From: Candidatus Saccharimonadales bacterium | Lineage (GTDB): Bacteria > Patescibacteriota > Saccharimonadia > Saccharimonadales > UBA7683 | Assembly: GCA_046350615.1 (NCBI GenBank) | Contig: JAXMAA010000001.1 | Coordinates: forward strand, 136,480-200,479 | Direction: 5' to 3' | DNA: 64,000 nt | In this document: piece by piece, positions 15,830 to 51,812 of the stretch | Layout of the letters: every line of letters begins with the position of its first letter | Numbering within the stretch: position 1 is the stretch's first letter | Notes under the pieces: model-generated | Database searches by the model: none | Seen by the model: only the letters and a program-made list of their open reading frames with translations | Told to the model about the DNA's origin: nothing | Made by a program: the position numbers and the translations under genes

Positions 15830-15879
15830 AACTACTCTAGTATATCATGCATGTCATTGTTGTTTCGACAACCTCGCAG

Positions 15880-16533: not shown

Positions 16534-16580
16534 ACCCTCAGTTTACTACAGTATTTTCAACAACTCGCTATACTAGAGAT

Positions 16581-18505: not shown

Positions 18506-18534
18506 CATGTTTCAATCTGTTATACTTACATGCA

Positions 18535-19110: not shown

Positions 19111-19990
19111 ATCTTCGGTAGTTTTTTTTGGGAGCGGTCCGGTCGCCGCCAAAAGTCTTGAGCTTCTCCTCAAACACCAGGAAGTAGAAGCTATTGTTAC
19201 CAAACCCGCAACCAAAAACCACATGCAATCAATTGCATCCGATATCCCGGTGTATGCTGTAGGCAACAAAGCAGAACTTGATGGGCTGATTGTATCAGCA
19301 CTTTTTTCGAGCAACCTGGGGGTACTCATTGATTTTGGCATCATTGTTTCGCAAACAGTGATCGATTCGTTCACGCACGGAATTATCAACAGTCACTTCT
19401 CTCTTCTGCCTGAGTGGCGAGGCGCCGATCCAATCAACTTTTCAATCTTAAGCGGCCAAGCCAAAACTGGCGTGAGTCTCATGCTGGTAGATAAAGGTAT
19501 GGACACCGGCAAAATACTTACTCAGAAGACTCTTATCCTCAAACAAGATGAAACCAGCACAACTCTTACGCAAAAACTGATAGCACTCAGTGGTGATCTC
19601 CTGTGCGTGAGCATTCCCCGCTATCTTAAAGGTGAAATTAAGCCAAAAAATCAACCGCACCCAGACCGTGCAACATACTCAAGAAAGCTAGCTAAAAAAG
19701 ATGGTTCGCTCGATTTTACAAAGCCAGCAAAAATATTAGAGCGAGAAATCCGCGCATTCATTGAATGGCCAAAATCACGTACTACATTAGCAGGCAAAGA
19801 CGTAGTGATCTTGAAAGCCTCTCTTGACGACACAGCATCCGGACAAATTGGCGAAGCCTACGTAACTGACGACAAGAAAATCGGTATATATACTACTGCA
19901 GGTTCACTCATTATTGAAGATCTCAAGCCTGCCAACAAAAACCCAATGAGCAGCAAGGCATTCTTAGCTGGGTACGGTCACAATCTCTAG
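19091..19990 (+). CDS. fmt: Methionyl-tRNA formyltransferase
   Basis: 299 aa. HFSLLPEWRGADPI motif; def-fmt synteny. Confidence 0.9.
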   Translation: MPSSGDKSSVVFFGSGPVAAKSLELLLKHQEVEAIVTKPATKNHMQSIASDIPVYAVGNKAELDGLIVSALFSSNLGVLIDFGIIVSQTVIDSFTHGIINSHFSLLPEWRGADPINFSILSGQAKTGVSLMLVDKGMDTGKILTQKTLILKQDETSTTLTQKLIALSGDLLCVSIPRYLKGEIKPKNQPHPDRATYSRKLAKKDGSLDFTKPAKILEREIRAFIEWPKSRTTLAGKDVVILKASLDDTASGQIGEAYVTDDKKIGIYTTAGSLIIEDLKPANKNPMSSKAFLAGYGHNL

Positions 19991-20023
19991 GCAATCTGAG
20001 TCTTACGCATAACCGCCGCCCCT

Positions 20024-20050
20024 GCGAAGACGGGATCCAGTGGTACTAGA
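20024..20050 (+). repeat. Degenerate member of the CGTCATCC...GGATCCAG hairpin repeat family
   Basis: cgccgcccctgcgaagacgggatccag, downstream of fmt. Compare 59074-59101. Confidence 0.4.
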
Positions 20051-20083
20051 TTGCTACCTTTGCAGGAACGTTACCATTTTAAT

Positions 20084-20728
20084 CTAGAACGAAGGTGGTG
20101 GCGGAATACTGCCGGATAAAGATTTGTCGTCAGTCTGGCTATCTGCCTGAACTGTTTGCGTAGAAGGATCGGGTTGTAACGGTTGCTGAGCAATTGGTTG
20201 GCCAGATACTGACTGCACTGGTTGAGTAGAGTGCTGTATCGGTTGATTATATGTAGACGGAACGACGACGGGTTGAGCCGGATTATTTGCCGCTGGATAT
20301 TGGGGCATGTGAGCTGGCGCGGCTTGTGGCGCAGAGGAGAATTGTGGCTGTGCTGCCGTAGGCACTGGCTGAGGATATGTCTGCTGTATCGGAGCACCCC
20401 CAGGAATCTGTGTTTGCCCTTGCATAGTCTGGAGAATAGTAGCGGAGTCCTTCTTGATCTCTGTCTTTAACTTCTCAAGCTCATCTGCCACAACTTGTTT
20501 ATAATCAGGGAAGTTTGTTTCAAGCCATTTTAAAGCACCGGCCTCATCATTTGTATCAATAAAACGTTCAAACTCATCAAGCTGCTGGTCGGTCATCCTC
20601 TCGGCCAAACGCATACCAACTCGCATCTCAAGCGTTTCGTAAATCTGACGCAACATCTGATCGCGTTCCGCTTTAGGCAGCGATATCAATCCAATCTCTT
20701 CCAAAAGTGTATCGTCAATTCGTATCAT
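20084..20728 (-). CDS. Hypothetical protein with a helical N-domain and a P/Q-rich low-complexity C-terminus
   Basis: 214 aa. The N-terminal 95 aa are structured (MIRIDDTLLEEIGLISLPKAERDQMLRQIYETLE...); the remainder is PQ-rich. From memory it resembles DUF5663-type CPR proteins; not verified. Confidence 0.55.
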   Translation of the reverse strand: MIRIDDTLLEEIGLISLPKAERDQMLRQIYETLEMRVGMRLAERMTDQQLDEFERFIDTNDEAGALKWLETNFPDYKQVVADELEKLKTEIKKDSATILQTMQGQTQIPGGAPIQQTYPQPVPTAAQPQFSSAPQAAPAHMPQYPAANNPAQPVVVPSTYNQPIQHSTQPVQSVSGQPIAQQPLQPDPSTQTVQADSQTDDKSLSGSIPPPPSF

Positions 20729-20761
20729 GCAATCATTCCTTTATACGTTTATTGTACCAGA

Positions 20762-21172
20762 TTACGTAGTTTTTACGACAAGCTCATCAAATCCTGTCTC
20801 TGGGTCATACTGACGGGAAAATTCCGTTTGGCTATCCTCAAGAATTGTTATCTCAGCAGTCCAAACAACTGTCGCCTCTTTTAAGTGCCCACCAAAAACA
20901 ACACCTGCCTTATCGGAAACAGAGATATGAAGATGAGACTTAAAATTTGCTAGCGTACCAACCAAGGAGACTACCTCGTAATCACCTTTGAACTGGCGAA
21001 CATCTTGTTTTTGCGGCGTAGCTCCTGCCATACGAAGTGATAGATCTTTTACTCCAGCCACACAGGTAACGATCGAGACTGAACGCAGACACTCCTCACG
21101 ACAATATGCCTCAATTGAACTACGTAATTCTTGGCCAGGACGCAAGCGAAAAGTATGAGTGTTTACTCTCAT
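20762..21172 (-). CDS. PPC (DUF296) domain protein
   Basis: 136 aa. FRLRPGQELRSSIEAYC...SIVTCVAGVKDLSLRMAG...GTLANFKSHLHISVSD...GGHL is the PPC/DUF296 pattern as I recall it. Confidence 0.6.
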   Translation of the reverse strand: MRVNTHTFRLRPGQELRSSIEAYCREECLRSVSIVTCVAGVKDLSLRMAGATPQKQDVRQFKGDYEVVSLVGTLANFKSHLHISVSDKAGVVFGGHLKEATVVWTAEITILEDSQTEFSRQYDPETGFDELVVKTT

Positions 21173-22950
21173 AGAGTTCGTTGAATTTCTTCGCGCTTAT
21201 AGAACTCGAGCCGATCACCTTCTTCGATCACTAACTTCTTCTCGAGTTTCAGAGAAAGACCACACATTTCACCTTCAAAAACTTCTTTTGCCTCCTGCTG
21301 TTGGCGCTGCACTCGCTCTACTACAACTTCACCCAGGCTTTCTTTGTCGCGCACTACTCGAGCACGACTACCCGGCTCAACCTTGCCCTTAGTAACTTCG
21401 CCACCACAGATAATTTCATCCTTAGTTGTTCGGAAAACTCCTCTAATAATAAGTTTCCCGAGTTCGGTTTCTTTAATTTCCGGAGTTAACAAGGCTGTAA
21501 GCACCTCTTTCGCGTCGTCGAGCAATTCGTAAATCACCTGGAATTCCCGAATTGAAACCTTGTCGCGTTCAGCCAATTTACGCACTGAGTTATGTGCTGG
21601 CACATTAAAGGCGTATATCAGGGCCTTGCTGGTAGCCGCCATTTGTACATCACTCTCGCTAATAGCCCCGACACCTGAACCAATGACATGCATTTTAAGC
21701 TCTTCATTTTCAAGTAATCGTAAGCTGTCGGTAATTGAAGTCAGCGACCCCTGTACGTCGGCTTTGATGATAACTGGCACCTCTTTTATTTGAGCATTTT
21801 TGTTAATCAAACCAAGTAAATCGCCACTTGTCATATTAAGCTTACCGCTTACCTTGCGACTCTTAGCCTTCTCTGCTCGTTCCCGGGCCTCTTTCTCATT
21901 CTTCGTTACACTGATGTAATCACCAAATTGGGGAAGTTCTTTGAAGCCTGTAATTCTAATCGGGGTTGACGGACCAGCTTCGGCAATTTCTTTGCCAGAC
22001 CAATCAGCGAGAGTCCTAATTTTGCCATAGGTAGTACCAGCTACAACATAATCGCTTTTATGAACTTTACCGTGTTCAATCAAGGTTGAAACTAGCGCCC
22101 CTTTGCCTGTTTCTAGATGAGCCTCAATGACAATACCTTCCGCACTGCCTTCCGTATCAGCCTTCAACTCCTCGATGTCGGCCATCAAAAGCACGAGGTC
22201 AAGCAATTCAGGTACACCCTGTTTTGTCTTGGCAGAGACTTCAACTACCGTCGTATCACCGCCCCAATCTTCTGGCATCAATCCTGCTTCAGCAAGGCTT
22301 TGCTTGGCTCGGTTTGCATCTGCCTCCGGTTTATCTATTTTATTCAATGCCACGATTATCTTAGCCTGGGCATCTTTCGCAAACTTAATTGCCTCAACAG
22401 TCTGCGGCTTAACGCCATCGTCAGCCGCCACTACGATAATTACTACATCTGTTAAACGGGCACCATGCTGACGCAGTGCTGAAAAAGCTTCATGCCCAGG
22501 AGTGTCCAGCAGCGTGATAACTCTATCATTATGTGTCGTTTGGTAGGCTGAAATATGTTGCGTAATACCCCCAGCCTCACCGCTCGCAACCTTAAGATCT
22601 AACACCGCATCAAGCAGACTAGTTTTACCATGATCCACATGACCCATGACCGCAACCACAGGCGGACGTAAACCGGCAGTTTTGGCATCAAGCCGCTCCG
22701 AACGAGCTGGCTTTTCAGCTTCAGCCTCTTCTTCAATTGTGCGCTCAAGTGTAATTCCAAGTTTCAGCTCCTCAACAATAATCTCTGCTGTATCGAAGTC
22801 AATTCGCTGGTTAACTGTGGTCATGATGCCGTTCTTAAACAATTCGCCAATCAATGTCGATACCGGAATATCAATTTTAGCTGCCAGATCACCGACGGTT
22901 ATCATGTTCTCTATCTGTATCACTTTGGAGTTTTCTGCCTGATCGTCCAT
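21169..22950 (-). CDS. infB: Translation initiation factor IF-2 (short N-terminus)
   Basis: 593 aa. VVAVMGHVDHGKTSLLD, DTPGHEAF and NKIDK GTPase motifs. Confidence 0.97.
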   Translation of the reverse strand: MDDQAENSKVIQIENMITVGDLAAKIDIPVSTLIGELFKNGIMTTVNQRIDFDTAEIIVEELKLGITLERTIEEEAEAEKPARSERLDAKTAGLRPPVVAVMGHVDHGKTSLLDAVLDLKVASGEAGGITQHISAYQTTHNDRVITLLDTPGHEAFSALRQHGARLTDVVIIVVAADDGVKPQTVEAIKFAKDAQAKIIVALNKIDKPEADANRAKQSLAEAGLMPEDWGGDTTVVEVSAKTKQGVPELLDLVLLMADIEELKADTEGSAEGIVIEAHLETGKGALVSTLIEHGKVHKSDYVVAGTTYGKIRTLADWSGKEIAEAGPSTPIRITGFKELPQFGDYISVTKNEKEARERAEKAKSRKVSGKLNMTSGDLLGLINKNAQIKEVPVIIKADVQGSLTSITDSLRLLENEELKMHVIGSGVGAISESDVQMAATSKALIYAFNVPAHNSVRKLAERDKVSIREFQVIYELLDDAKEVLTALLTPEIKETELGKLIIRGVFRTTKDEIICGGEVTKGKVEPGSRARVVRDKESLGEVVVERVQRQQQEAKEVFEGEMCGLSLKLEKKLVIEEGDRLEFYKREEIQRTL

Positions 22951-22985
22951 GATAGCCGTCCTTTCTGGTTAATTTTCTTACATAA

Positions 22986-24050
22986 TTACTGTAAACTAAG
23001 TGAAATTTTACGATTATCGCGATCAACATCCAAAATCTTGAATGTTTTCTTCTCATTTAGCTTAAAGAGCTTCTCTGGGTCAGCGCCTTGACCTTCTCCA
23101 AGCTCCGAAACATGCACCAATGCTTCAACCGCAGGACTCAGCTGAATAAATGCGCCGAATGGCGTAATACGAGTTACGGTGCCCTCAACCGCATCACCCT
23201 TTTTAAAGCTTTCGGCTTCTTTGGCCCATGGGTCGTCTTGTGTTTGCTTAATACTAAGTGAGAGTCGATCTTTATCAATAGCGATAATTTTAGCCTCAAC
23301 CTTATCGCCAACCTTTACATAATCAGCTGGGCTTTCAACGCGCTCCCAAGAGATCTCGGAGATGTGAATGAGGCCTTCAATACCATCAACATTTACAAAG
23401 GCACCAAAATCTACCACCCCAGTCACAACACCGTGCACACTGTCCCCAACGCTTAATTTCTCGAAACGAGCCTGCATATCTTCGCGAACTGCTTCTTTCT
23501 CGGAGAAAATTAATTTGTTGGTCTTGCGATCAGCGTCTAAAATTCGTACTTTTAATACCTGGTTTGTCAGGCTGTTTAAGCGCTGTAGAATTTCATCTTT
23601 ATCAGAGCTACCAACTCGCGGGTAATGCTCGGCTGATAGCTGCGAGACTGGTAAGAAGCCACGTACGCCCTCAAGCTCTACCAAGAGGCCGCCGCGATTA
23701 GCATCGTAAGGAGTGATCTCGATCGTCTCACCTTTTTCAAACAATGCCTTGACCTCGTCCCAGCCACGGTCTTTTGCGGCCCTTCGCAGCGAGAGCAATG
23801 CCTGTCCATCTTCAATTTCTGGGTCTACTACACTCGCAACCACCTCCTGGCCAACTTCCAGTTTTTGGCCAAAGCCAATCTCACGACGCGGCACCATGCC
23901 GACCCCGTTAATACCAAGATCTAGCCAGATCTCGTGCTTTGCAACACTTAAAATTGTTGCCTCTACTACCTCGCCAACAGCGAGTTGTTTTTGCTGAACC
24001 TCGTTTAAGAGGTCATCCATTGTTACACTTTGTTTTGCCATAAAAAACAA
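22986..24050 (-). CDS. rpsA: S1 RNA-binding domain protein (four S1 repeats; short RpsA-like)
   Basis: 354 aa with four repeats of the GxVxxxxxxGAFVxL / ISxxRV type. Confidence 0.75.
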   Translation of the reverse strand: MFFMAKQSVTMDDLLNEVQQKQLAVGEVVEATILSVAKHEIWLDLGINGVGMVPRREIGFGQKLEVGQEVVASVVDPEIEDGQALLSLRRAAKDRGWDEVKALFEKGETIEITPYDANRGGLLVELEGVRGFLPVSQLSAEHYPRVGSSDKDEILQRLNSLTNQVLKVRILDADRKTNKLIFSEKEAVREDMQARFEKLSVGDSVHGVVTGVVDFGAFVNVDGIEGLIHISEISWERVESPADYVKVGDKVEAKIIAIDKDRLSLSIKQTQDDPWAKEAESFKKGDAVEGTVTRITPFGAFIQLSPAVEALVHVSELGEGQGADPEKLFKLNEKKTFKILDVDRDNRKISLSLQ

Positions 24051-24190
24051 AACTCCTTCTTGAAATATATTTCTTGAGACGTGGGAATACAGAGTAACTC
24101 ACGCCATAAGATTGATACTATTGTACCGTATCTGATGCTAAGAAGTCAAAGTTTCACTGAACTACATTGTGCGATGCCGAAAAAGCAACA

Positions 24191-24622
24191 TTAATCATAC
24201 TTATGAAGTATGCGCGCACTTTCATATAAACGGGTAACTGCATAGCCAATGAGCCCCAGCGTAATTGCACTGAAAACCACGCCGGCATCCATACCAGCGT
24301 CCGGAAGTGCCGAGGCTGCACCGGGCTCAGCCAACTCACTATCCGCAATTCCTGAAGGAATTTGCTTGGTGCCATTTGTTGTCGAGTCATCATTTGAGGT
24401 ACCGGAACTACTTGAGCTATTGTTCCCTTGTTTAGCCTTGGTATCGGTATTCTGATTTTGCGATTTTTGAGCAGTGCGAACTGTTTGCTGAGCTCGATTG
24501 CTTGCCTGCCGATTGCGAACAAATCTGACAACAAAAAATACCAACAGCACCACTAAAATAATGAAGATCACCAACCGAACAATACCGCTTAAATGTGAAA
24601 GAATACTCCGTCTGCCTTCCAT
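24191..24622 (-). CDS. Small membrane protein with N- and C-terminal TM helices and a low-complexity S/N/T-rich middle
   Basis: 143 aa. VRLVIFIILVVLLVFFVV and VVFSAITLGLIGYAV hydrophobic segments. Confidence 0.5.
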   Translation of the reverse strand: MEGRRSILSHLSGIVRLVIFIILVVLLVFFVVRFVRNRQASNRAQQTVRTAQKSQNQNTDTKAKQGNNSSSSSGTSNDDSTTNGTKQIPSGIADSELAEPGAASALPDAGMDAGVVFSAITLGLIGYAVTRLYESARILHKYD

Positions 24623-24736
24623 GTCTCTCTCCTCTTGTACATCTAGCTTAACTGGTTTTTAAACCAAGTGCAAAGTTAAGCGTTTTGCAGTAATAAACCC
24701 TTAGCCGGCCTCCACTCGTAATGTTATAATGAACGC

Positions 24737-25552
24737 ATGATAGTCGGCGTGGATATCGGAGGGACAAAAACACTAATAGCTGTCTTCGCAGAAAACGGCA
24801 AACTCCTCAAAGAAGTTCGTTTTGAGACTAATAAAGACTACACTTTGTTCTTACAAGACCTTGAACAACACGCAAGACAGCTCGAAACCGCAAAAGCAAA
24901 GCTCGCTTGTGTCGCAGTGCCAGGAAGGATCGACCGAGCCTCGGGAATTGCATTGAGCTTTGGCAACCTTGACTGGCGTAATGTGCCGATAAAACAGGAT
25001 GTATCGAGAGCAGTAAGTAATAAGAACGTTATCATCGAGAACGATAGCAAGCTTGCTGGTATTGCTGAAGGTCGTGCATTAAATGGTCGCTATAAACGAG
25101 TTCTTTACCTCACCCTGAGTACCGGGATCGGCGGTGCACTCATTGTAAATGGCAAACTTGTTGATGCGCTAAAAGATATGGAGATTGGGAAAATACCACT
25201 ACAACACAATAATAATTTGATCGCCTGGGAAGATTTTGCCTCAGGTCGGGCATTCTATGAGGCCTACGGCAAAAAAGCGGTTGATGTAACAGATGAAGCA
25301 ATCTGGGAAGAATATGCGGCATTGTTAAACCCAGGTTTAGGAGTTGCTTGTGCAATACTACAGGTAGAGGCAATCGTATTTGGAGGCGGTCTCGGCCAAC
25401 ATCTCAGCCGATTTAAAAAATACCTGCCTGGGCTACTCGATACGACACTCCATTCAATCGTCAAAAAGCCTGATGCAATTATTACAACGCAGTACCGTGG
25501 TCAATCAGTAATTTATGGATGTTACCACTATGCCAAAGACCATCTTGCCTAA
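24737..25552 (+). CDS. ROK-family sugar kinase
   Basis: 271 aa. MIVGVDIGGTKTLIAVF and LSTGIGGALIVNGK motifs. Confidence 0.8.
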   Translation: MIVGVDIGGTKTLIAVFAENGKLLKEVRFETNKDYTLFLQDLEQHARQLETAKAKLACVAVPGRIDRASGIALSFGNLDWRNVPIKQDVSRAVSNKNVIIENDSKLAGIAEGRALNGRYKRVLYLTLSTGIGGALIVNGKLVDALKDMEIGKIPLQHNNNLIAWEDFASGRAFYEAYGKKAVDVTDEAIWEEYAALLNPGLGVACAILQVEAIVFGGGLGQHLSRFKKYLPGLLDTTLHSIVKKPDAIITTQYRGQSVIYGCYHYAKDHLA

Positions 25553-26012
25553 TATTTCTATCATCAAACAACAGTTTCGTCAGTTTAGCTTTAAAGAACA
25601 TGAAGTTTTCCATTGGTCACCACGAGATAACTGTATTTATTACGATCCGATTAAATTAACCAGAGCGGCTGGTGTCTACCAACTGCTGCACGAAATTGGT
25701 CACGCACTAAGTGGTCATACCAATTATGAAAGCGGTATTCAGTTACTTAAAATGGAGACCGAAGCCTGGCAGCAAGCTCAACGCATTGCTAAATCATATA
25801 ATCTGAAAATTAGTGAAACACAAATTGAGCGTTGCCTCGATAGCTACCGCGACTGGCTGCATCTACGCAGTAAGTGCCCGAGCTGCAGCACGACTGCCGT
25901 AGAAACCGAGGCTAATCTGTTCCACTGTTTCAACTGTCTGCAAGATTGGAAAGTACCAGCGGATCAGCGCAGCCGCTCATACCGCCTGAAGCTTGTGAAT
26001 CAATTGATCTAA
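25515..26012 (+). CDS. Hypothetical HExxH protein with a C-terminal zinc ribbon
   Basis: LLHEIGHAL plus CPSCS...CFNC. The probable start is MPKTIL near 25530. Confidence 0.5.
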   Translation: MDVTTMPKTILPNISIIKQQFRQFSFKEHEVFHWSPRDNCIYYDPIKLTRAAGVYQLLHEIGHALSGHTNYESGIQLLKMETEAWQQAQRIAKSYNLKISETQIERCLDSYRDWLHLRSKCPSCSTTAVETEANLFHCFNCLQDWKVPADQRSRSYRLKLVNQLI

Positions 26013-26014
26013 AC

Positions 26015-26043
26015 AAGAAGAGTGCTGCAACAGCACTCTTCTC
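26015..26043. terminator. Bidirectional stem-loop between convergent genes
   Basis: aagaagagtgctg-caa-cagcactcttctc, a perfect stem of about 12 bp. Confidence 0.6.
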
Positions 26044-26072
26044 TAAGATCCAAGAACTACAATCTAAGATCT
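26042..26072 (+). repeat. AGATCT-containing 31-nt motif (copy 1)
   Basis: tctaagatccaagaactacaatctaagatct, near-identical to 51919-51949. Both lie at the 3' end of minus-strand genes. Confidence 0.6.
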
Positions 26073-26073
26073 G

Positions 26074-26304
26074 TTATTTACCAGCTTTGGTACGACGTGA
26101 AATACGACCGCCCTTAGAACCAGCTAAACGAGCTCGTTCTTTGCCAGTCATGCCATCTGCACCTTTTTTTTCACTGGCGAAACCGCCAGTTTTACCGCGC
26201 TTACCACCTTTTGCGCCAATCATAGCGTAAAAGTCTGCACCGTACTTAGTTTTATTAGTTGAAGCAGCTTTAACGCCACCAGATTGAGTTCCAGCCATGG
26301 TCAT
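26074..26304 (-). CDS. KGG-repeat general stress protein
   Basis: 76 aa. GAKGGKRGKTGG...GSKGGRISRR is the stress-induced KGG repeat pattern. Confidence 0.75.
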   Translation of the reverse strand: MTMAGTQSGGVKAASTNKTKYGADFYAMIGAKGGKRGKTGGFASEKKGADGMTGKERARLAGSKGGRISRRTKAGK

Positions 26305-26438
26305 GACCTCCCTTAAATTTAATATTCCACCTCTCAGGGTAAAAATAAAAAGAGCTCGCGAATGGTGTTACGCGAACCCTCCAATTTCACCTCTGAAATT
26401 AAGCTTATGTTATCATACTATAACGCTTGTGTCAACAT

Positions 26439-27215
26439 TTATCTTATGTCTGATGCTCCCCCTGTTACCGCCTGCCTTCGTGTTGGATTTTCAGAGATAT
26501 AATACTTAGCGCTAGCGAGTAGTCCAAGTTCTCTGACTCTACGTTGTGAAGTGAAAACAAACATATTTTTTGAATGATGCATTGCTCTAATACCAAACTC
26601 ATGTGCAATCGCTAAAGAATACTGTACGTCTTCACTACACGTAATACTATCTGCCCGAGGAAAACCACCAACAGTATCGTAAGCATATGCAGTGGTAGCC
26701 ATATTATGTCCAGGAGCAAAATGCCACAGACCGGCAGTTTGATATTGAAACATTTTAAGAAGTTTGCCCGTCTTTTTAATCCAAGGAAGAAGGTTGACCT
26801 CAAAGAATGTTGGGTCATTATCAAAGCCAGCACTAACCGGTCCAGTTAGTAAGGCGACCCCAGATTTTTTGCTAAAAGTGTATTCAATCGCCTGCATCCA
26901 ATCTTTGGCCGGAACCGTGTCAGCATCAATTCTTGCTATTACGTCTGCTCCTATTTCATCTATTGCAAAACGAAAGCCAGTATCAGCTGCAGCACCGGTT
27001 CCCTTTTCAGCTTCTTTAATAATATGTAGAACAAAGCTACCGCACCGATGTCCAAAAAGCTCTAGAGTTTCGAGAGTCCGATCAGTTGAACCATTATCAA
27101 CTACTACGATATGTCTTTCGTACTCACTTTTTGCCTGTAGCTCAAGGCCCAGCAAACTAAGACCAATCCTCTGCTCTTCATTATAGGCAGGAATGACTAC
27201 TGCGGTTTTATTCAT
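26439..27215 (-). CDS. Family 2 glycosyltransferase
   Basis: 258 aa. AVVIPAYNEE...VVDNGSTDRT...RIDADT (DxD-like). Confidence 0.85.
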   Translation of the reverse strand: MNKTAVVIPAYNEEQRIGLSLLGLELQAKSEYERHIVVVDNGSTDRTLETLELFGHRCGSFVLHIIKEAEKGTGAAADTGFRFAIDEIGADVIARIDADTVPAKDWMQAIEYTFSKKSGVALLTGPVSAGFDNDPTFFEVNLLPWIKKTGKLLKMFQYQTAGLWHFAPGHNMATTAYAYDTVGGFPRADSITCSEDVQYSLAIAHEFGIRAMHHSKNMFVFTSQRRVRELGLLASAKYYISENPTRRQAVTGGASDIR

Positions 27216-27295
27216 ATAGCGTTAATTATAGCCTTTGTGACCAGCAAAATGTTTTGAATTATTATAGCCATCTTAGCAAATGGAGTGAAGAGAAA

Positions 27296-27325
27296 ACAAA
27301 AACCATCCTTTCGGATGGTTTATTG
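27296..27325 (-). terminator. Rho-independent terminator after 5S rRNA
   Basis: On the minus strand: aaccatccgaaaggatggtt followed by a T-run. Confidence 0.7.
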
Positions 27326-27327
27326 TA

Positions 27328-27438
27328 TAATTCGGCGCCGTGCTACCTTCCCCTGAAGAGTATTATCGCCGCTACTGGGCTTAGCTTCTGTGTTCGGAAT
27401 GAGAACAGGCGTTTCCCCAGCGCTATGAGCACCGATTG
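27328..27438 (-). rRNA. rrf: 5S rRNA
   Basis: The reverse complement reads ...GGTGCTCATAGCGCTGGGGAAACGCCTGTTCTCATTCCGAACACAGAAGCTAAGCCCAGTAGCGGCGATAATACT...GGTAGCACGGCGCCGAA. Ends are approximate. Confidence 0.85.
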
Positions 27439-27589
27439 AGATATATGTTGTTTTTTAAGCAACATATATCCTGATCGATTCTTATAACGTTCTTTTAAAT
27501 TGAACGTGTGATCGTAATGATACACACAAATAACTGGTCAAACGTTCTCTTGTCTTCATTCGCTAAGGCGAATTCAAACAAGAGAAGCA

Positions 27590-30915
<3,326 letters not shown>

Positions 30916-31746
30916 GGTTTGACTAGTTATTAGTGATTACCAATAACTTGCCGTTGTCCAACTTAAAAGACCAACTAGATTGTTAATGATACTAACTCCA
31001 GATATGATATCTCGCATGAACTTGAGTTCAAATGTAGTCGTTGATTGCTGTCATCCTGAACTTGTTTCAGGATCTAATCAATTTCTCATCTGAACCTGCA
31101 GAGCTAGACAAGTGTATCAAGTAGAGCTTGTTGCAAAGTACGAAGCGCCTCGCAACTCTTTTTGGTAATAAAAAAGCTCTGATGAGATTGTTCACTAATT
31201 GTGGCATATAATCGCCAGAGGTTTCAACTCCTGAAATATCTGTTTCTGCATATCAAAATAGTATCAAATCACTCACCTGGTAACAGTATATCCATATTTG
31301 ATGTAATCAACAACGCTTATGGTTAATTTAATCTGTTAATATGACTTGCCTCCGCTTTTCAACAATGCTATATGTTTTGAGTTTGAACTGAAATGCTAGC
31401 AAAGAGGTTAATAACAGCCCTAGTGGATCACGAACACTGCTAGTGCAGATTAGCGCGCGTTCTGCCCAAGCCATCCTAACCAGTGCTTATTATCATGTAT
31501 AAGGATACTTTTTGCGCTCACCGAAAGCTTCAGTAATTTTCAGTTAAGCTATACCTACGAAAACTTTTCCATTAAATGTAACCAAAAGTTTTCCATAATA
31601 TTAGGATGTATATACCTTATTTCAAATTGATCATGGTGGCTTACTTTGATTAGCCCGGCATCAAGTAAGTTTTGTTCAAATACATTCATACTGTCAAAAG
31701 ATCATAGATTAAATTAATAAAGCAACAAAAAGAATCCTTTCAAATA

Positions 31747-31822
31747 ATGGCGATCCAGGATTTGAACCTGGGAATCCCCGCCATTATCAGTGACGCGCTT
31801 CAACCAACTGAGCTAAACGCCC
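31747..31822 (-). tRNA. tRNA-Ile (GAT), apparently damaged
   Basis: Reverse complement: GGGCGTTTAGCTCAGTTGGTTGAAGCGCGTCACTGATAATGGCGGGGATTCCCAGGTTCAAATCCTGGATCGCCA. The anticodon loop CTGATAA is fine, but the acceptor stem pairs only 5/7 and the D-stem has an extra base. Confidence 0.7.
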
Positions 31823-31852
31823 TCGATTTTGAAAAAGTTCTTATTATGTAAA

Positions 31853-31930
31853 TGGTGGAGACACAGGGACTGAACCCCGGACTCCCGCCTTGCAAAGGCG
31901 CAGTGCTCTAGCCAATCGAGCTATGTCCCC
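31853..31930 (-). tRNA. tRNA-Ala (TGC) with encoded CCA
   Basis: Reverse complement: GGGGACATAGCTCGATTGGCTAGAGCACTGCGCCTTTGCAAGGCGGGAGTCCGGGGTTCAGTCCCTGTGTCTCCACCA. Confidence 0.85.
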
Positions 31931-32596
31931 TCGTCGGAATTTTCGCTGATCTTGTTTTTCTTTCAGAAAAACTTGATCTTAAGCTATATTCTCCTCCTCA
32001 CTTAAAAAAGTCGCTGCGCTTTGTTTTTAACCGAAGAAATCTTCAATACGAACAGATGCTATTCTATCTTATTCATTGATTATTCGCAAGCGGACGGCCA
32101 AGTAAATTAAACGTAATGGGAATTTTCGGACAAATTTACTTGGTTTAGCTGTCATTGGTGCTGGAGGCTTATCGCTTATAAAGAACTATCAGGTTGCAAA
32201 TACAATGCCGCTTCGGTGGCTAGAACAGAAGCTTGGCTCAGCAGCTCATACAGCATCTGGAAGATCATCTCGGTTCTTCTGGCATTTATTGGGTTTACTG
32301 TTATGTTCGGCTTTGCAGATAATCTGCTCACTTTCCCATTAATGATCACAACATGATTACGTTGCTGTTGGTTCCAATTGAGAATGAGATAAAGATAATC
32401 ATTAAATTAAAATCGCTCATTACGGGCGATTTTGTTATTAAAAACTGAGTAGTGCAACGTCGTAGTTAAGTAAAAGGTGAATCTAAGTTCAATCCTGAAA
32501 GGATAGAATTGTTTTATAGATCTCCATTAAAACAATCGAGACCGACCTCGCTCATAAAGCTAGATTGCTCATAACTATGGCTAGAACTCCCTTGCG

Positions 32597-34055
32597 AAAG
32601 GAGGTAATCCATCCCCACCTTCCGTAGATACCTTGTTACGACTTAACCCCAGTTATCCCCCCACCTTAGGCTCAATAAATTAGACTCGGGTGTTGGTGAC
32701 TTCATGCATTTGACGGGCGGTGTGTACAAGACCTTGAACGTATTCACCGTAGTGTGCCGACTCACGATTACTAGTGATTCCATTGGGCGCAGGCGAGTTT
32801 CAGCTCGCAATCCGAATCCGCCGGGGGACTTGGCTTACGGACGAGTTCCCCTCGCGGGTTGGTTGCCCTTGCACTTACGCATTGTAGCGTTTTTCTAGCC
32901 CAGGACGTAAGGGTAATAATGACCTGACATCATCCCCTCCTTCCCTCCCCGTTACCGAGGCAGTCTGTTTAGAAAAATCCGGCACCGAAATATAAGGGTT
33001 GCGCTCGTTGAAGGACTTAAACCTAACATCTCACGATACGAGCTGACGCTTGGCTATGCAACACTCAGTCACTTGTCCATTAAAGCAATTTTCTTGCTTT
33101 CGCAGAAATTCCAAGGATGTCAAGCCCTGGTAAGGTTCTTCGCTTATCATCGAATTAAAGAACACGCTCCACTACTTGTGCGGGTCCCCGCTTGGTTCCT
33201 TTGAGTTTTAATCTTGCGACTGGTAATTCTGCGCGGATGCTTAACGCGTTAGCTTCTGCTACTAGAAGGGTCGATACTCCTAACAGCTAGCATCCATCGT
33301 TTACGGCGCATCAATGGCATCTAATCCCGTTCGCCTCACGCTTTCGTGCCTCAGTGTCAGAAATGAGCCAGTCACCTGCCTACGCCATTGGTGTTCCTCC
33401 TTATATCTACGGATTTCACTCCTACACAAGAAATTCCAGTGACCTCTCTCATTCTCGAGCTGTGCCAGTTTGAATAATGTGTTGATGGTTGAGCCACCAG
33501 ATTTCACTATTCACTTTAGTTTAGCCACCACGCAACTCTTTACGCCCAGTAAATCGGATAACGCTTGATCCTCCAGGCGACCGCGCTGCTGCACGGAGTT
33601 GGGCTGATCCTTATCTGGCGTGCTTACCGTCATATTTCGCACATAAAAGCAGTTTATAATCCGAAAACCTTCATCCTGCACGCGGTGTTGCTCCATCAGG
33701 TTTGCGCCCATTGTGGAAAATTCCTAACTGCCTCCTGTAGGAGTCTGACCGTGTCTCTAGTTCCAGTGTGGCTGATCATCCTCTCAAATCAGCTGAAGAT
33801 CGTCGCCTTGGTAAGCCTTTACTCTCACCAAACTAGCTAATCTTACGCGGGGCTCTTCTCAAACTGAAGCTTTAATCCGAAGACTATATGCGGTATTAGA
33901 CACCGTTTCCAGGTTATCCCTCAGTTTGGGGTAGATTCCACGTGTTACCTTACCTGTCCGCTGTCGTGTACTCTTCGAAGGGGCCTACCGCTCGACTTGT
34001 ATGTTTTAGGTACGCCGCCAGCGTTCATCCGGAGCTTTGTGATCAAACTCTCCAT
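32597..34055 (-). rRNA. rrs: 16S rRNA (recognisable, but universal sites are altered)
   Basis: Reverse complement starts AGAGTTTGATC and ends ...AAGTCGTAACAAGGTATCTACGGAAGGTGGGGATGGATTACCTCCTTTC. TGTACACACCGCCCGTCA is intact, while the 515, 785, 907 and 1050-1100 regions carry indels and substitutions. Confidence 0.85.
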
Positions 34056-34247
34056 AAAAAAGTGTTTAATTCTAACTTCGTCGAAATACTGAACATCTCA
34101 AATTATTAAACATCAAAACTTAACGTTGATGCTGTATCATCAGTTTTTAAAGTGAGCCTCTCTCTGTAAGAATTAAGAATGATTGCCCCCAGATAAGACC
34201 AATGGTATTACTCGTAATCTCGCATAAAAGATCAGGATAGTACTGCA

Positions 34248-34610
34248 TCAATTGTATGAAAACAGATCGATCCTGTCAACAGTAAAGGTGGGCCTTTTGC
34301 TGTAATTTATGTAACAATAAACACAAGCACAGGTACAACTACACCTATCAGCAGGCCCGTACACCTCGAATGGTGTGTGTCCATTAGATTGATGAATTAT
34401 CATCTTAGGTAGGTGATCTTTTTTTAAAAAATTCCAGGCACAATAGCTGTGGTATTCTGAGCGTGCTCGCCACATCCGTATGCGTGTTACCGATGGCACT
34501 GGCACATAATAATCGCAGCTGAATACAGGTAACCAAATTCGACTTTTTGAGCCCAACCTATAGGCCAAACCGTACAGAGCGAAACAATCACCGGCATGCG
34601 CGCTCGGCAT
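34248..34610 (-). pseudogene. Remnant of a radical-SAM protein (N-terminal fragment only)
   Basis: ...HTPFEVYGPADRCSCTCACVYCYINYSKR contains a CxxxCxxC cluster. The ORF stops 17 codons later, about 190 nt before the 16S 5' end. Confidence 0.4.
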
Positions 34611-34729
34611 GCCTCCTGAACGATAGATATACCGCTAATCCCAATCTTTCTTGGTTATTCCCATAAGAACTATCTTGGCGATCTGTGCCATTATATCCAC
34701 GTAAAGATAGGATTACAAAGTATGCGTAA

Positions 34730-37212
34730 CTACTGAACCACTGTCTCATTATCGCTACCTTCCCGCAACTCTTCTTCACCAGACTGATCCTTGGAAACCG
34801 CAAAGCGGTTGATGCCACGGTATCATTATCGGCTAGGCGCATGATTCTTACACCTTGAGTAGTTCGGGCCAAGTGATGGTATATCTTTAAGCTCGGTTTA
34901 ATTGCCCGCCGTTTGTTGAAATAATAACTTAGGAGTCTCTGTCAGTTAATGATTTCACTGGAGACGAGATTGCCTGTTTTGGTCATAACAGCAGATCGAA
35001 TATCAATTTTACCTCGTTTATGCGGACTGAATCGATATTTTGGTCCAGCCGCCATAACCTCTTTCACTGATTACAAAGATACTGATTCTTCCGAACAACG
35101 TCCATCCCCACTACCAGACGCCAGCGCAGCCTCATACTGCGCAATAATACCCCGAGCAGTGCGACCTGCGCACGCAATATCGTTCTCGTGGAAGCGGATT
35201 GCTCAATGCTGGCGATGTTGAAATAACAACTTTACGACCGTTGCGGTGAGCCTTGATCCATTTCAGCTCATCACTATCGTCAATTCCTTATTGCAATCAA
35301 ACCACTTGGTTCGGATGTTATTGTAATCCTCTAACTTGGTTCTCTTTAACTGTGCCTGCTTTGGTAGCCAGTAAAGAAGCAGCCAGTCTTCTGCTTTGAT
35401 CGTAAGCGACAACTGCAGAACAGCCTCCTCTGATGAAGGTAAGAGGTTCATCAGCAATACCTGCACAGCCCCGCGCAGGAACCCCGGAACTTAAGCCTGA
35501 ACATTCTGATCCTTACAGCAGTGTACACAGATAATCATGCACTGCTGCGAAGCAATATGTTCAATTACATCAGCCCTTTCGTGGCCATTCCGCGCTTGCC
35601 TTTCCTGCCCTCGTTCCGGCGACGATATTCAGAAGCTTAGACCAGCTGGATATAATTCTCTGATGTGACTGCTATAACAACCTGCTCTTCCGGAATCAGT
35701 TCTTCATCACTAAACTTTACTGAGCTCATGGTTATCAATCTTGGAACGATTTTCATCACCATATTTTTTAATTTCAAGCACCAGTTTTAATAATCTTCTA
35801 GACCTCGTTCTCGCCATGATTGCCTCGCTTTTAGCAATCAGAGTCATCAGCTCTTTAGCTCATCTTCGATCGCCTGCGCCTGACCAGAAGACGACGCAGC
35901 AGCTGCATCGCGAGCATGGCCTTGGCTTGAATTTGAGAGCTTAAACTGTTTAATTGGAGTTCTTCTCGGCCTCTTCTTGGTTCGTTTCACGAATGGTCTT
36001 AATTCATTTCATCGATATTATCCAGTGCAATCTTGTAACCTTCAAGATGTGCACGTTCTTTGGCTTGGTCTTGCAGCTCAATTCGGTACGCCTTCGAACA
36101 ACCTTCTGGCGGTGTTTGATAAATTCTGCAGCATTTCTTGCAGCCCAAGAATTTTTGCTGAATGCCATCAACCAGTGAAAGCATATTGAAGCAAAGCTGT
36201 TTGCAGCGCTGTTTGCTTATACAGCTGGTTCAGGAGCTTCTTGGGGTAGGCATCTTTTTTGAGTTCGAATACGTTCTGAACGTACTGCTATGCTGTTTCA
36301 TCGCGTAGATCCGCAATATTACCTTGAATCTTCTTATCTTTTACCAGTTAACTCTGCGATCTTTTCGATAAGTGTTGCTTTATTTATACCATATGGCATC
36401 AGTCACAATAATCTGGTGGCGACTCTTCTTGGTTTCTGGCTTACGGGTAAACTTCGCACGTACTATCATGCCAACACGACTTGTCATAGGCTCGCTTCAT
36501 CGGTACCTACCAATGGTTGCGCCTGTTGGAAAATCAGGACCTTTACATGTTTTAGGAGGTCATCAATGGTTGCCTCTTTGTTGTCAATCAACTCAACGAT
36601 ATCAACTGAAGCCTGCTAAGGTTGTGCGGGGGAATGCTATTGCCAGCACGACCGCAATACTGACTGATCGTTCAGGAGTAAGTTTTACAGCTTAGCTTAA
36701 GCAGGTTCCATTGCCCTTGCAAGCGGCCATCGTAGTTATCTCGAAAATCAATAGTGTCTTTATCGATATCAGCTAACATCTCATCAGCTGCGAGCCAGAT
36801 GAGCCTCGGTGTAACGCATCGCTGCGGCTTCGTCACCATCCATTGAACCAAAGTTACTCTTGATCAATAAGAGGATATCGTAGAGACCACGGCTGCGCTA
36901 AGCGAATCCACGAATTGCAAATAGCTGTATCGCCGTGCGGATGAAAGTCACCCATCACCGCACCAACAATCGTTGCACTCTTACGATGCCTAAGTACTCC
37001 GCACGCAGGCCATCACGGTTCATGGTATAAAATACGACGAGATGACCGGGCTTGAGACTGTCGCGCATACATCCGGCAGCGCACGCTCAATAATCACGCT
37101 CATTGAGTAACGGCAGTTGTTCATCACCTGTTCAATTGTTCGGTACCAGACCGTCATCATCTTTGTATAAACGGTCGCGCATCTGTTTGGGGGTAGTATT
37201 TGTGCTGTTCAT
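34730..37212 (-). pseudogene. gyrA: DNA gyrase subunit A, heavily frame-disrupted
   Basis: Minus-strand translation is readable only in fragments: MNSTNTTPKQMRDRLYKDDDG..., ...KPGH..., FGSMDGDEAAAMRYTEAHLA (active-site Tyr region), ...TQGVRIMRLADNDTVAS..., and an acidic tail ...SGEEELREGSDNETVVQ*. No ORF longer than about 95 aa survives. Confidence 0.85.
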
Positions 37213-37218
37213 ACTTAA

Positions 37219-39184
37219 ATAGATTCAGGCCTCATATCTGCATTTTCGCCCTTGTCTGAATAAAGCTTTTTCTCAGCGACACATCGTCACCCATCAGCTT
37301 TGTAAAGACGGCACGGCCTCTTCTGCGTCAAAGTGTCAGGTACGCAAAGAACCAGCACTCGGTTCTCGGGATTCATCGTGGTCTCCTAGAGCTGTTCATA
37401 CCATAATCCATTTCGCCAAGACCTTTAAAACGAGAGATTGTAACGCCAGCTTGTTTCATCTTATCTTCAGTGGCATTCAGGAAGCCGTACCACGCCTTTT
37501 TCGGCAATAATCTCGTCCATCACACGCTCACGCTCATCTTCGTCATAGGCATAGATCTTCTTTTGATTCTTGCCAATGCCGTAAAGCGGTGGTTTTGCTA
37601 AATACACGCAGCCACCTCGTCAATTTCTTCTGCAGAGTATTCGAAGAAGAATGTGAGGAGCAACGTTAAATATGACTGCCGTCGTCATCGGCATCAGTCA
37701 TGGCGATAATCTGTGATATCGGAGGCCAGTTGAATATCAAATTGCTCACCGATACCAACTCCAAATGCTTGAATCAGGCATACAATTTCTTTGTTTGCAA
37801 ACATTTTATCAAGCCAGCTCGCTCAGTATTGAGCACTTGCCACAAAGCGCAATTGCTGTGTTTTGTTATCTCGCCTTCTTTTAGCAGACTTCTGCGTCGA
37901 GTTACCTCTCACAATATAGATTTCGCTATCGTCAGGGCTCTTACCGGAAACAATCCCAGAGCTTACCCGGGTTAGGCCCATGCCATCAAGCACTTCTTAC
38001 GGAGCATCACATTTACGAGCGGCACGAGCAGCCTTACGAGCACGAGCAGCCAAGAGCGCTTTGTTAACAATCTTCTTTGCTATATCAGGTTTCTAATGAT
38101 AGTATGCAAAATACTCGTTCATCACCTCCGCTCAACATAGCGAATAACTTCGGTTGCCGTGTTTATTTTTGGTCTGGCCTTCAAATTGTGACCAGAAGTT
38201 TCACCAAGATAATTGCCGTTAAGTCTTCTCGGATATCATCACTACCGAGATTATCTTCTTTTTTCCTTGCTGTAACCATTTTTACGGGCGTAATCATTTA
38301 TCACCCGAGCTACGCAGCACGAAAAGCCAACTGGCGTGCTGCCATCAGGAGTTAGCACATTGTTAGCAAAATGGCTTGACCATTTCAACAAATGAGTCAT
38401 TGTAATTTGAACTGCCATTTCAACTATAGAATCTCAATTCCGACGTTCAATATAAATGGTTTACTGCTCAAAATATCTTTGCTAATATTCGAGAGGAGCG
38501 CATATAGCCTGAATGCCAATTTCAAAGTAGAATGACATGCGATCGCCAGTGCGCTCATCAAGTACCGATGTGCGAACCCCTTTTGTAAGATACGCTTGAT
38601 GTCAGATAGTTAACAACCCATTTATAATCGAATTCGACTGTTTCTTTAAAATTGTTGAATTTCCAGATAGAACGATGCTAGTGCCATGGATTTGTCGGTT
38701 GGGCCAATATTTTGGCGGCAGACTTGGCAACACCCTGCTCAAATTCTATTCTGTAAAGCTTGCCATCCTTAGAAACCTCAGCAATGAGTTTGGTTGAAAG
38801 CGCGTTCACTACGCTTGAGCCCACACCGTGCAAGCCAGAAGATACTTTATAGCCACCACCGCCAAACTTACCACCCGCATGAAGAACGGTTAAGACTGTT
38901 TCGAGTGTACTTTTGCCAGTTTTTGCATGCTTGTCTACTGGGATACCACGACCATCATCAGTAATAGTAATGCCACCATCTGCTAGAATTTTTACATCTA
39001 CAAATGTCGCATATCCAGCAATTGCTTCGTCAATACAGTTGTCGGCAATTTCTTTAATTAAGTGATGTACGCCATCATATCCTGTACTACCAATATACAT
39101 ACCTGGACGTTTTCGAACTGGTTCAAGTCCTTCAAGCACTTGAATTTGACTGGCGTCATAGGCCTGATCTTTTTGTTTGCTCAC
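37219..39184 (-). pseudogene. gyrB: DNA gyrase subunit B: first 168 codons intact, remainder frame-disrupted
   Basis: ORF 38678-39184 reads [33 protein letters not shown]...[21 protein letters not shown]. Downstream fragments: GTSIVF, EIYIV.G.S...SAK (Toprim), IIAMTDADDDGSHI, KGLGEM-like. Confidence 0.9.
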
Positions 39185-39400: not shown

Positions 39401-41740
39401 ATGTTTCGTAAGCTTGTCTCTAACCTTCCGTTTAGTCCATCGCTGATCAATCAGGTCGGATTTTATTCAAAACGCCTCAAAAAAGAGGATCTGACTCGTC
39501 GTGTTGGCCTGATTTTTACTGCTCTCGCAATAGTTGTGCAATCCTGCACATTTTTGGCACCTGCCAAAGCGACGTTAGCGGCAAGCCTCAATGACATAGT
39601 CTACGGAGGTGGAGACCGAAGCTCCTTGGTTAAAGCCCTCAGCAGCGGATGCGATAGCAGAAAGCGCTGTGATCTAAAGGCAATATATGGAGCTTACGGT
39701 ATCAACGCCACCAATCTAGCAAGCGCTAAAGATGTTACCATAACCTCGACTGCTGCGAATAACTATTGGTCAATCGGAAGATCGCCTAGAGGCTATGGTG
39801 GAGAGGTTACGAAAAACATTCCGGGCGGTCCAACAGTGTACGCTCGCACGCTCCATGGATGGGCAGCAAATAAAAACTGGGCGGCCATTCAAGTCTCAAC
39901 AAGCCAAGGCACCCGTTGGATCTTAAAGGAGTGTGGAAATATTGTTACAAAAGAAAGCACTCCCACACAACCAGTGCAGCCACCAGATGTAGCAATTACC
40001 AAAACGGTTAGTAAATCGAAAGTAAAGCGTGGAGAGAAATTTTATTACGATCTCAAAATAACCAATATAGGCAAAGGGATTGCCAAAGATGTATTGATCT
40101 ACGATACAACTGTTCCTGGTCTTGAGCTTCAGCCTGATGGCCTCAGCACTGATCCACTCGTGACAGTTATGCGCTGGCAGACCAAAACACGGCACACAAT
40201 TGCCCCAGGACAAACCATGAAGTACCGTTTGTATGCAATTGTACGCAGCAACGGCCCCGCAACACTTGTTAACAAAGCTTGCGTGGATATTATTGACGCC
40301 AATGTGTATAACAACTGTGATCAAGTTCCCGTAACTGTCATCGAGCCTTGTCCTTTACCAGGTAAAGAAAATCTCGCGAAAGATGATCCTCAGTGCAAAT
40401 CTAACCCAAGTATTACAGTTGAGAAATTAACCGATAAAAGTAGTCTCAAGCTTGGCGACACCTTCACCTATACACTCAAAACAACGAATAAAGGAGATGT
40501 CGATCTGACACAAACAGCCTTTAACGATAAAGCTCCTGCTCAAATTGAATTTCTTGAAGTAAAGGAACCCGGTGAAAGTAGCTTCAAGGCTCTGGCCAAC
40601 AAGCGTGAGTATACGAGCAAGATATTCTCTCTTGGGAAGGGCAAGACGGTTACTGCACAAATCAAGGCACGTGCAATCGCCTCAAGCAGTAGTCAGGTAT
40701 TTAATACCGTGTGTGTTATCGCCACCAATCCCCAGACCAACTCCACTACAGGAACATGTGACGACGTACCTGTTACAATTACAACTCCGCAAAAACCGCA
40801 AACAGAATATTGCCCATACCCCGGCAAGCAAAGCCTGCCAAAAGACAGCCCCCTCTGTAAGCCCGATGTACCTCAACAGCCTGAATCATGTACCGTTCCC
40901 GGAAAGGAAAACTTGCCGAAGAATGATCCCAACTGCAAGGAAGATTCCAAGCCAGAAATGTGCACCGTGCCAGGCAAAGAAAATCTTCCAAAGAGCGATC
41001 CGAAGTGTAAACCCGACTGTACGCTCAACCCAAGTATCAGCTATGATGATCCACGCTGCACACCCTGCCCTATTGAAGGCAAAACAAACATTCCCAAAAA
41101 TAGTCCTGACTGCAAACCATGCGATGAGACCAAAAAAGATACTAACGGGAAAGACATTAGCTGTCTTGAGCTCCGTAAAAAAGCACGAAATATAACCAAG
41201 CAGATTGCTGATGCCAACGGCACTAAAGCAAGCGCAGGTGACACTATTGAGTACACACTCTCTGTAAGAAATCTCAGCAAAGAAGACAGGACTGGTTTCG
41301 TAATCGAGGAGAATATGGAAGATGTTCTTGAGTACGCCGATATCCTCGATGCAAGTGGCGCAACATTTACCGAAAACCCGGTAAAGATGCTCTCTTGGGC
41401 TGGCGTAACTATAAAGCCTGGAGAAACCGTTAGCCGCACTATCCTCATTAAGGTCAAGAGCATGATCCCCAACACTCCAGCATCAACTTCAGATCCACTC
41501 TCTTACGATATGCAGATGGTTAACGTATACGGTGACACCGTGCGAATAGAGCTGCCAAAGACCCCTATTAAAACCATCGAGCAAACTGTGACGAAGCTTC
41601 CAAGCACTGGATTTGGTGCAAATGTTGTAATAAGTACAATTCTCCTTATGGCCGCTACCTACTTCTACTTCCGAAACCGTACTATGGTAAAAGAGCTTAC
41701 CCTCATCAGACAACAATTTAACTACGCTGCAGGAGCATAA
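39401..41740 (+). CDS. LPXTG-anchored surface protein with DUF11-type repeats and Cys-loop repeats
   Basis: 779 aa. N-terminal signal/TM; DUF11-like segments (VAITKTVSKSKVKRGEKFYYDLKITNIGKG..., ITVEKLTDKSSLKLGDTFTYTLKTTNKGD...); six CxxPGKxNLPKxDPxCK units; C-terminal LPSTG plus TM plus RNR. Confidence 0.8.
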   Translation: MFRKLVSNLPFSPSLINQVGFYSKRLKKEDLTRRVGLIFTALAIVVQSCTFLAPAKATLAASLNDIVYGGGDRSSLVKALSSGCDSRKRCDLKAIYGAYGINATNLASAKDVTITSTAANNYWSIGRSPRGYGGEVTKNIPGGPTVYARTLHGWAANKNWAAIQVSTSQGTRWILKECGNIVTKESTPTQPVQPPDVAITKTVSKSKVKRGEKFYYDLKITNIGKGIAKDVLIYDTTVPGLELQPDGLSTDPLVTVMRWQTKTRHTIAPGQTMKYRLYAIVRSNGPATLVNKACVDIIDANVYNNCDQVPVTVIEPCPLPGKENLAKDDPQCKSNPSITVEKLTDKSSLKLGDTFTYTLKTTNKGDVDLTQTAFNDKAPAQIEFLEVKEPGESSFKALANKREYTSKIFSLGKGKTVTAQIKARAIASSSSQVFNTVCVIATNPQTNSTTGTCDDVPVTITTPQKPQTEYCPYPGKQSLPKDSPLCKPDVPQQPESCTVPGKENLPKNDPNCKEDSKPEMCTVPGKENLPKSDPKCKPDCTLNPSISYDDPRCTPCPIEGKTNIPKNSPDCKPCDETKKDTNGKDISCLELRKKARNITKQIADANGTKASAGDTIEYTLSVRNLSKEDRTGFVIEENMEDVLEYADILDASGATFTENPVKMLSWAGVTIKPGETVSRTILIKVKSMIPNTPASTSDPLSYDMQMVNVYGDTVRIELPKTPIKTIEQTVTKLPSTGFGANVVISTILLMAATYFYFRNRTMVKELTLIRQQFNYAAGA

Positions 41741-50742: not shown

Positions 50743-50923
50743 GACCCACAAGGGCACCACAAAGCGTGTACGCACATCTGCGACCGGTAAATTACTCCGT
50801 GAACGCGCTTTCAAGAACCATTTGCTAGCTAAAAAATCTGCTGGCCGAAAACGGAACAATGCCGGATCTCAATCTGTTAGTAGCGGTGATAAGAATAAGA
50901 TTAAACGTGCGCTTGGTGCGTAA
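50729..50923 (+). CDS. rpmI: 50S ribosomal protein L35
   Basis: [33 protein letters not shown]; 64 aa. Confidence 0.95.
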
Positions 50924-50946
50924 GAAACAATCGTTAAGGAGTTAGT

Positions 50947-51803: not shown

Positions 51804-51812
51804 ACCCGGTTT

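Follow-up and report, generated by a model that had tools for sequence, protein, structure and literature searches.

The altered 16S rRNA gene described here lies within a degraded block that, with a probability of about 0.9, we take to be uncorrected, read-quality sequence in a public MAG of a Candidatus Saccharimonadales (TM7/CPR) bacterium, and not biology. The block was delimited by changes at invariant columns and by indels within the window (the whole 64-kb stretch of DNA that was analyzed):

28075-38722 (edges ±~30 nt), no strand: degraded block of ~10.6 kb, with ~13-19% noise

It takes in most of the 23S rRNA gene, tRNA-Ile, tRNA-Ala, the 16S rRNA gene, a small membrane-protein gene, gyrA, and gyrB past codon ~155, and within it 13-19% of the columns that are unvarying in relatives are changed. 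We infer the technical origin of these errors from the sequence alone. The organism itself almost certainly has a normal 16S, and no cell could be viable with the block as its sole gyrase and ribosome.

The original prediction, that the 16S rRNA gene has lost universal primer and decoding-site sequences, was a correct observation of the deposited sequence. The gene is full length, and all five of the altered sites were found, their coordinates essentially unchanged:

32597-34058, minus strand: 16S rRNA gene, full length, heavily corrupted (Rfam RF00177, 861.6 bits, model positions 1-1533)
33594-33577: 530 loop, altered, GTGCAGCAGCGCGGTCGC
33327-33305: 790 loop, altered, GGATTAGATGCCATTGATGCGCC
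33209-33186: 920 region, altered, AAAACTCAAAGGAACCAAGCGGGG
33741-33723: 338 region, altered, CCTACAGGAGGCAGTTAGG
33064-33045: h34 (1050) region, altered, GTGTTGCATAGCCAAGCGTC

Likewise, the 1390-1400 region and the 3' end had been described as intact, and both the TGTACACACCGCCCGTCA stretch (1400 region) and the 3' end, GGATTACCTCCTTT, are unaltered. Comparison with the Rfam SSU model and a count of changes at invariant positions, both of which had been proposed as checks, were carried out. The score of 861.6 bits, against a gathering threshold of 50, identifies the gene as a bacterial SSU locus, while the two related Saccharibacteria 16S genes that were tested scored 1504-1507 bits. Of 1091 columns that are invariant in 17 related full-length 16S genes, 160 (14.7%) are changed in the window, 15 of these differences being deletions, and the window carries a further 21 private inserted bases. 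When the 17 relatives were left out one at a time, 0-2.9% of invariant columns differed, so that only the window, at 14.7%, failed to retain them.

A comparison with L021, the closest available relative, gave a similar picture: 12.6% of the lineage-invariant columns differ, a figure taken from a pairwise alignment, as misalignment had inflated the mismatch count at variable columns in the comparison based on the multiple alignment. Between natural pairs of relatives, at most 3.6% of the invariant 16S columns differ, even where up to 56% of their variable columns do. The idea that L021 belongs to the same species, with identical variable regions, was dropped after the pairwise comparison. In L021, a ~100-nt insertion in 16S V1 (~15270-15370) is absent from both the window and L009; V1-type insertions are typical of CPR 16S genes.

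The secondary structure is similarly damaged. The window keeps 355 of the 453 pairs in an RNAalifold consensus (78%), and the relatives keep 98-100%; this consensus was built from the relatives and so favors them, but the gap to the window is still large. The remaining 98 pairs are non-canonical in the window (~22% broken or gapped), indicating that helices have not been maintained, and the cmscan alignment shows single-base deletions within the 530 loop (GUGC-AGCAGC-GCGG) together with many non-canonical pairs. The broken pairs and the 530-loop deletions bear out the expectation that an RNA with the deposited sequence would probably not function.

We compared the altered sites with those of related loci. 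The canonical lineage form of the 530 loop, GTGCCAGCAGCCGCGGTCATAC, is present in every one of the 38 related loci spanning the site, and the same 38 of 38 read GCGGTCATAC, so that the C of GGTC is the norm for this lineage, which carries GGTCATAC in place of GGTAATAC. The 530-loop mismatch originally reported thus stands as regards its deletions and other changes, but the C in GGTC (GGTAA in the universal sequence), which had been counted with the damage, is not part of it. All related assemblies are canonical at the altered 16S sites, and the 530 loop, the 790 loop, the 920 region, and h34, each of which is canonical in every relative, carry both substitutions and indels in the window. None of the 167 related loci that were fetched has the window's 530-loop variant. 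True divergence had been allowed for in the event that related lineages showed the same changes with compensatory covariation, and they do not.

These comparisons bear on the possibility that the gene is a functional, extremely divergent 16S from a lineage that has remodeled its decoding center, to which we assign next to no probability. CPR bacteria are described as having unusual 16S genes that universal primers under-detect (10.1101/2024.03.06.583507), and GGTCATAC is truly carried by the lineage in place of GGTAATAC; but the changes are private to one sequence, the 98 non-canonical consensus pairs show them to be uncompensated, T-loop bases are lost in the adjacent tRNAs, and the same process frameshifts gyrA and gyrB. 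Pair-breaking and damage in the protein genes refute a functional divergent 16S as far as sequence analysis can.

Contrary to the original framing, the loss of conserved sequence extends well beyond the 16S gene: the same damage continues without a break through the 23S gene, both tRNAs, the spacers, gyrA, and the greater part of gyrB. On the rRNA side, the features are as follows:

27588-30908, minus strand: 23S rRNA gene, corrupted apart from the final ~480 nt (Rfam RF02541, 1559 bits)
27330-27436, minus strand: 5S rRNA gene, intact, outside the block (Rfam, 78.8 bits)
31853-31930, minus strand: tRNA-Ala(UGC) in the spacer, corrupted (42 bits, versus 71-72 in relatives)
31746-31823, minus strand: tRNA-Ile(GAU) in the spacer, corrupted (39 bits, versus 67 in relatives)

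Against the same model, the 23S of the relative L053 scores 2484 bits, and 314 of 1660 invariant 23S columns differ in the window. In the tRNA-Ala gene, the T-loop has a deletion (GGTTC-AGTCC), the anticodon stem has gained 2 nt, and AG in the D-loop has become GA; in the tRNA-Ile gene, the variable-loop region contains an insertion and the 3' end reads CCATT, not CCCACCA. The 5S gene is 100% identical over 110 nt to the independent Logan contigs L081 and L082.

The 16S-23S spacer is long (~1.7 kb). The order 16S, tRNA-Ala, tRNA-Ile, 23S is found in the window (31746-31930) and in relatives (L053, 16773-16974; L063; L018), and is the reverse of the common bacterial spacer order, Ile-Ala. Two stretches of the 23S gene on the minus strand, 28262-28481 (~220 nt) and 28891-29081 (~190 nt), gave no alignment to the 23S of relatives, and the first corresponds to just ~40 nt in L053. 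They may represent a CPR-type rRNA insertion, which, lying inside the degraded block, is not reliably readable. Elsewhere in the window, the class A RNase P RNA (51315-51806, plus strand; 240 bits) is 492 nt long against a 367-position model, pointing to sizeable insertions; the copy in the relative L099 is 341 nt. An ORF without a Pfam match (50869-51393) overlaps it on the opposite strand.

Protein-coding genes on the other side of the 16S gene are affected as well:

37244-39184, minus strand: gyrB, codons 1 to ~155 intact, the rest frameshifted (tblastn with the GyrB of L001)
38678-39184, minus strand: gyrB stub ORF of 168 aa (the annotated product)
34801-37170, minus strand: gyrA remnant, without a long ORF (tblastn, ~30% identity, residues 57-832 in one frame)
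34331-34746, minus strand: remnant of the small membrane-protein gene (tblastn pieces in three frames)

With the GyrB of L001 as the tblastn query, residues 1-204 matched at 80% identity, and beyond them identity was 37-58% over three frames. Further pieces of gyrA were recovered in another frame, and the ORF at 34588-34872 has a faint Pfam DNA_gyraseA_C match; between the 16S gene and the gyrB stub (34.06-38.68 kb), no ORF of at least 150 aa was found. In relatives, the intact ORFs are ~675 aa (gyrB), ~850 aa (gyrA), and ~150 aa (the small membrane protein, which begins MRQWLSSYAYFVIP and whose ORF is intact in L001, L002, L006, L009, and L021). The gyrB stub is identical to the NCBI protein MFO0970900.1, [quoted passage not shown], and so the errors stand in the public record. 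Near the gyrB locus are a 779-aa DUF11-repeat surface protein (39401-41740, plus strand), with a membrane anchor and, at the C terminus, an LPSTG-like motif, and a 2596-aa ORF (7572-15362, minus strand); both proteins are large and probably lie at the surface.

Each edge of the block is sharp and falls within a gene that is normal on its outer side. At the right edge (~38,722), all 223 invariant columns at codon positions 1 and 2 of gyrB are unchanged above 38,725 (the first ~460 nt of the gene), whereas below that position 272 of 1724 such columns (15.8%) are changed, the first deviations being at 38722, 38715, and 38703. The left edge lies within the 23S gene at ~28,06x-28,10x: the last indel-type errors fall at ~28,085-28,100, and below ~28,055 there are only substitutions in variable helices. 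Farther out, identity to L053 and L060 is 94-96% over 27,830-28,030, and there is a single mismatch at the 3' end of the gene (27,737-27,516) over 222 nt common to the independent Logan contig L082.

That the edges pass through genes with normal outer parts argues against biological pseudogenization. A genuine decaying relic, for which the gyrB-gyrA-rRNA region would have been duplicated, this copy being dead and the functional one lying elsewhere in the genome, would fit a block that is clearly homologous to a real locus yet free of selection, and the window, as 64 kb of a 351,512-bp contig, leaves room for a second copy. A dead gene should decay throughout, but the outer parts of gyrB and the 23S gene are perfectly conserved; the relaxed constraint over whole genes that marks a pseudogene was not found, in view of the 0 of 223 changed columns against 15.8% in gyrB and the one mismatch in 222 nt at the 23S end. 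In addition, the block is exactly where synteny with 80 relatives would place the normal locus, a search with Rfam found no second SSU or LSU copy in the 64-kb window, substitution runs of up to nine adjacent bases are unlike decay by point mutation, and the same kind of damage occurs in a 300-nt patch of priA. We therefore regard such a relic as highly improbable.

The profile of the errors was compared across the block. In gyrB and gyrA, the window departs from the columns that nine relatives share without variation at rates of 16.5, 15.2, and 12.2% for codon positions 1, 2, and 3, respectively. This ~4-kb part contains 86 indel events, 62 of them of 1-2 nt; over the same span, the control comparison of L019 with L009 gave only about a dozen, all of at least 3 nt. 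The commonest change throughout is G>A (~12% of G), with a transition/transversion ratio of 1.3-1.5 and a spectrum that is alike in the rRNA and gyrase parts; all twelve substitution types occur, as do indels. Substitutions make up ~76% of the errors at invariant rRNA columns, and a census gave no sign of homopolymer depletion in the block. Changes in the 16S gene are clustered, forming 78 runs where 137±4 were expected from shuffles, and the runs reach nine adjacent bases. Errors thus fall without regard to feature type, codon position, or RNA pairing, and indels that are not multiples of three are frequent in coding sequence (gyrB/gyrA and priA). The shared spectrum and clustering in the rRNA and gyrase parts indicate that a single, function-blind process acted on the whole tract, which bears no trace of selection.

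There is a very slim chance that the deposited bases are correct and record a localized, strand-biased (G>A-rich) hypermutation of the 10.6-kb tract, with survival either on a second copy or of nothing but DNA captured from a dead lineage. Two specific mutagenic processes were considered and ruled out: DGR-type mutagenesis, as G is altered more often than A and indels are abundant, and deaminase-type mutagenesis, as all twelve substitution types and indels are present.

Damage of this kind is also found at a distance from the block:

17220-17525, plus strand: small low-quality patch within priA (16577-18505), with about ten 1-5-nt indels relative to L082

Several of these indels are at homopolymers, and the surroundings are otherwise ~97% identical to L082, a Logan contig. 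As a consequence, priA is split into two ORFs (16491-17285 and 17567-18505), compared with 637-642 aa for the priA product of relatives. The patch is probably a second low-quality tract of the same assembly, and its small, partly homopolymer indels match the pattern well known for indel errors in long reads (PMC9262707; 10.1101/2021.08.23.457338).

In a search for closer relatives, we used the intact GyrB N-terminus as a query against GTDB genomes and JGI metagenomes, which returned 160 loci. None of these was from the same species, the best match having 91% amino-acid identity, and any 16S among them was only ~79-80% identical to that of the window. The closest 16S fragments, from L009 and L021, are only 87-88% identical to the window, a figure that includes the noise. 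Across 80 GTDB genomes, as well as additional metagenome contigs, the gene order is consistently gyrB, gyrA, small membrane protein, 16S. For the window's IF-2 (21169-22950), there are hundreds of homologs at 63-99% identity, the named ones being from Candidatus Saccharibacteria or Saccharimonadales. An independent assembly of the same strain that spans the 16S gene was not found: the Logan contigs with a 99%-identical IF-2 (L081-L085) end at the 3' end of the 23S gene, without 16S, and the short-read contigs of relatives stop at the start of 16S and the end of 23S. Exact matches were also sought for the window proteins GT2, the gyrB stub, and P0121, and no independent copies of them are on record.

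Relative to L081 and L082, the region 14000-27700 of the window switches abruptly between 95-100% and ~65% identity in blocks of a few kilobases (for example, at ~23,500, 24,250, and 18,500), with no break in the ORFs; the pattern resembles a mosaic produced by recombination between related Saccharibacteria populations. Adjoining the 5S gene in the window is a gene for a GT2 glycosyltransferase (26439-27215, minus strand), while the equivalent position in L081 (429-1181) and L082 (547-1299) holds a gene for an Exo_endo_phos protein on the other strand. Between ~26,437 and 27,326, no DNA alignment of the window to L081 or L082 was found, and together these observations suggest a strain-specific gene replacement. 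Also in the window, a 337-aa ORF (46938-47951, plus strand) has a weak match to a Mutator-family transposase (PF00872, 23.9 bits), and is possibly an IS element in a small genome.

The different nearest relatives of gyrB and of the block, together with the mosaic identity to L081 and L082, make it plausible that several populations are involved. One could accordingly ask whether a chimeric or mixed-population consensus, in which reads from several related Saccharibacteria collapsed over the operon, is the sole cause of the block. The start of gyrB is nearest to L001 and L002 and the block is nearest to L009 and L021, as such mixing would have it, and elsewhere in the window identity to L081 and L082 varies in mosaic fashion (65-100%). 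Real alleles, however, cannot alter columns that are identical in all relatives, 13-19% of which are altered here, nor can mixing make the 1-2-nt indels in gyrA and gyrB; as a sole cause, it is very unlikely. Mixing of populations could account for the points at which the accurate contigs stopped, though not for the noise.

An assembly artifact would account for the block in the following way. The underlying locus would be the ordinary syntenic region of the lineage, gyrB-gyrA-small gene-16S-tRNA-Ala-tRNA-Ile-23S-5S, over which the bases deposited for ~28,07x-38,72x would carry ~13-19% errors, in the form of short substitution runs and many 1-2-nt indels. Their source would most likely be long-read sequence near single-read quality, which either (i) served to join two accurate contigs across the rRNA operon, or (ii) stayed unpolished. 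As the start of gyrB is closest to L001 and L002, and the block to L009 and L021, the join may link different co-occurring populations. Frameshifts driven by indels are a recognized problem of long-read genome and metagenome assemblies (PMC9262707; 10.1101/2021.08.23.457338).

The block has no biological importance; it matters for data hygiene. The deposited 16S and 23S would give a spurious long branch in trees, and the 16S would mislead surveys of primer coverage or of 'divergent rRNA' in CPR bacteria. Similarly, a 168-aa 'ATP-binding protein' in place of gyrB, together with a missing gyrA, would depress estimates of completeness or give the false impression that genes had been lost. Scans for unusual rRNAs should first check the flanking protein genes for frameshifts made by the same process.

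Among known systems, uncorrected long-read tracts resemble the block in their ORF-breaking 1-2-nt indels, in errors that are blind to codon position and RNA structure, and in sharp edges that are unrelated to gene boundaries and sited over an rRNA operon. A polished long-read consensus does not, the ~13-19% errors and high share of substitutions here being far worse. The substitution-rich mix is also unlike the textbook profile of PacBio CLR and only loosely similar to that of raw nanopore reads, and homopolymers are not visibly compressed, in contrast to the tracts of long-read or hybrid assemblies.

Two biological systems are partly comparable. The 16S genes of CPR and Saccharibacteria are noted as difficult for universal primers (10.1101/2024.03.06.583507). 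The window shares with them the GGTCATAC part of the 515F mismatch, common to 38 of 38 relatives; its remaining changes are, in contrast, private and uncompensated, with deletions in universally conserved loops. The degenerate rRNAs of reduced endosymbionts and organelles have likewise lost universal motifs and fit bacterial models poorly. Their divergence is common to a lineage, and their helices are kept or deleted as units. The window differs from these systems in that neighboring essential genes are broken and the damage ends abruptly inside genes.
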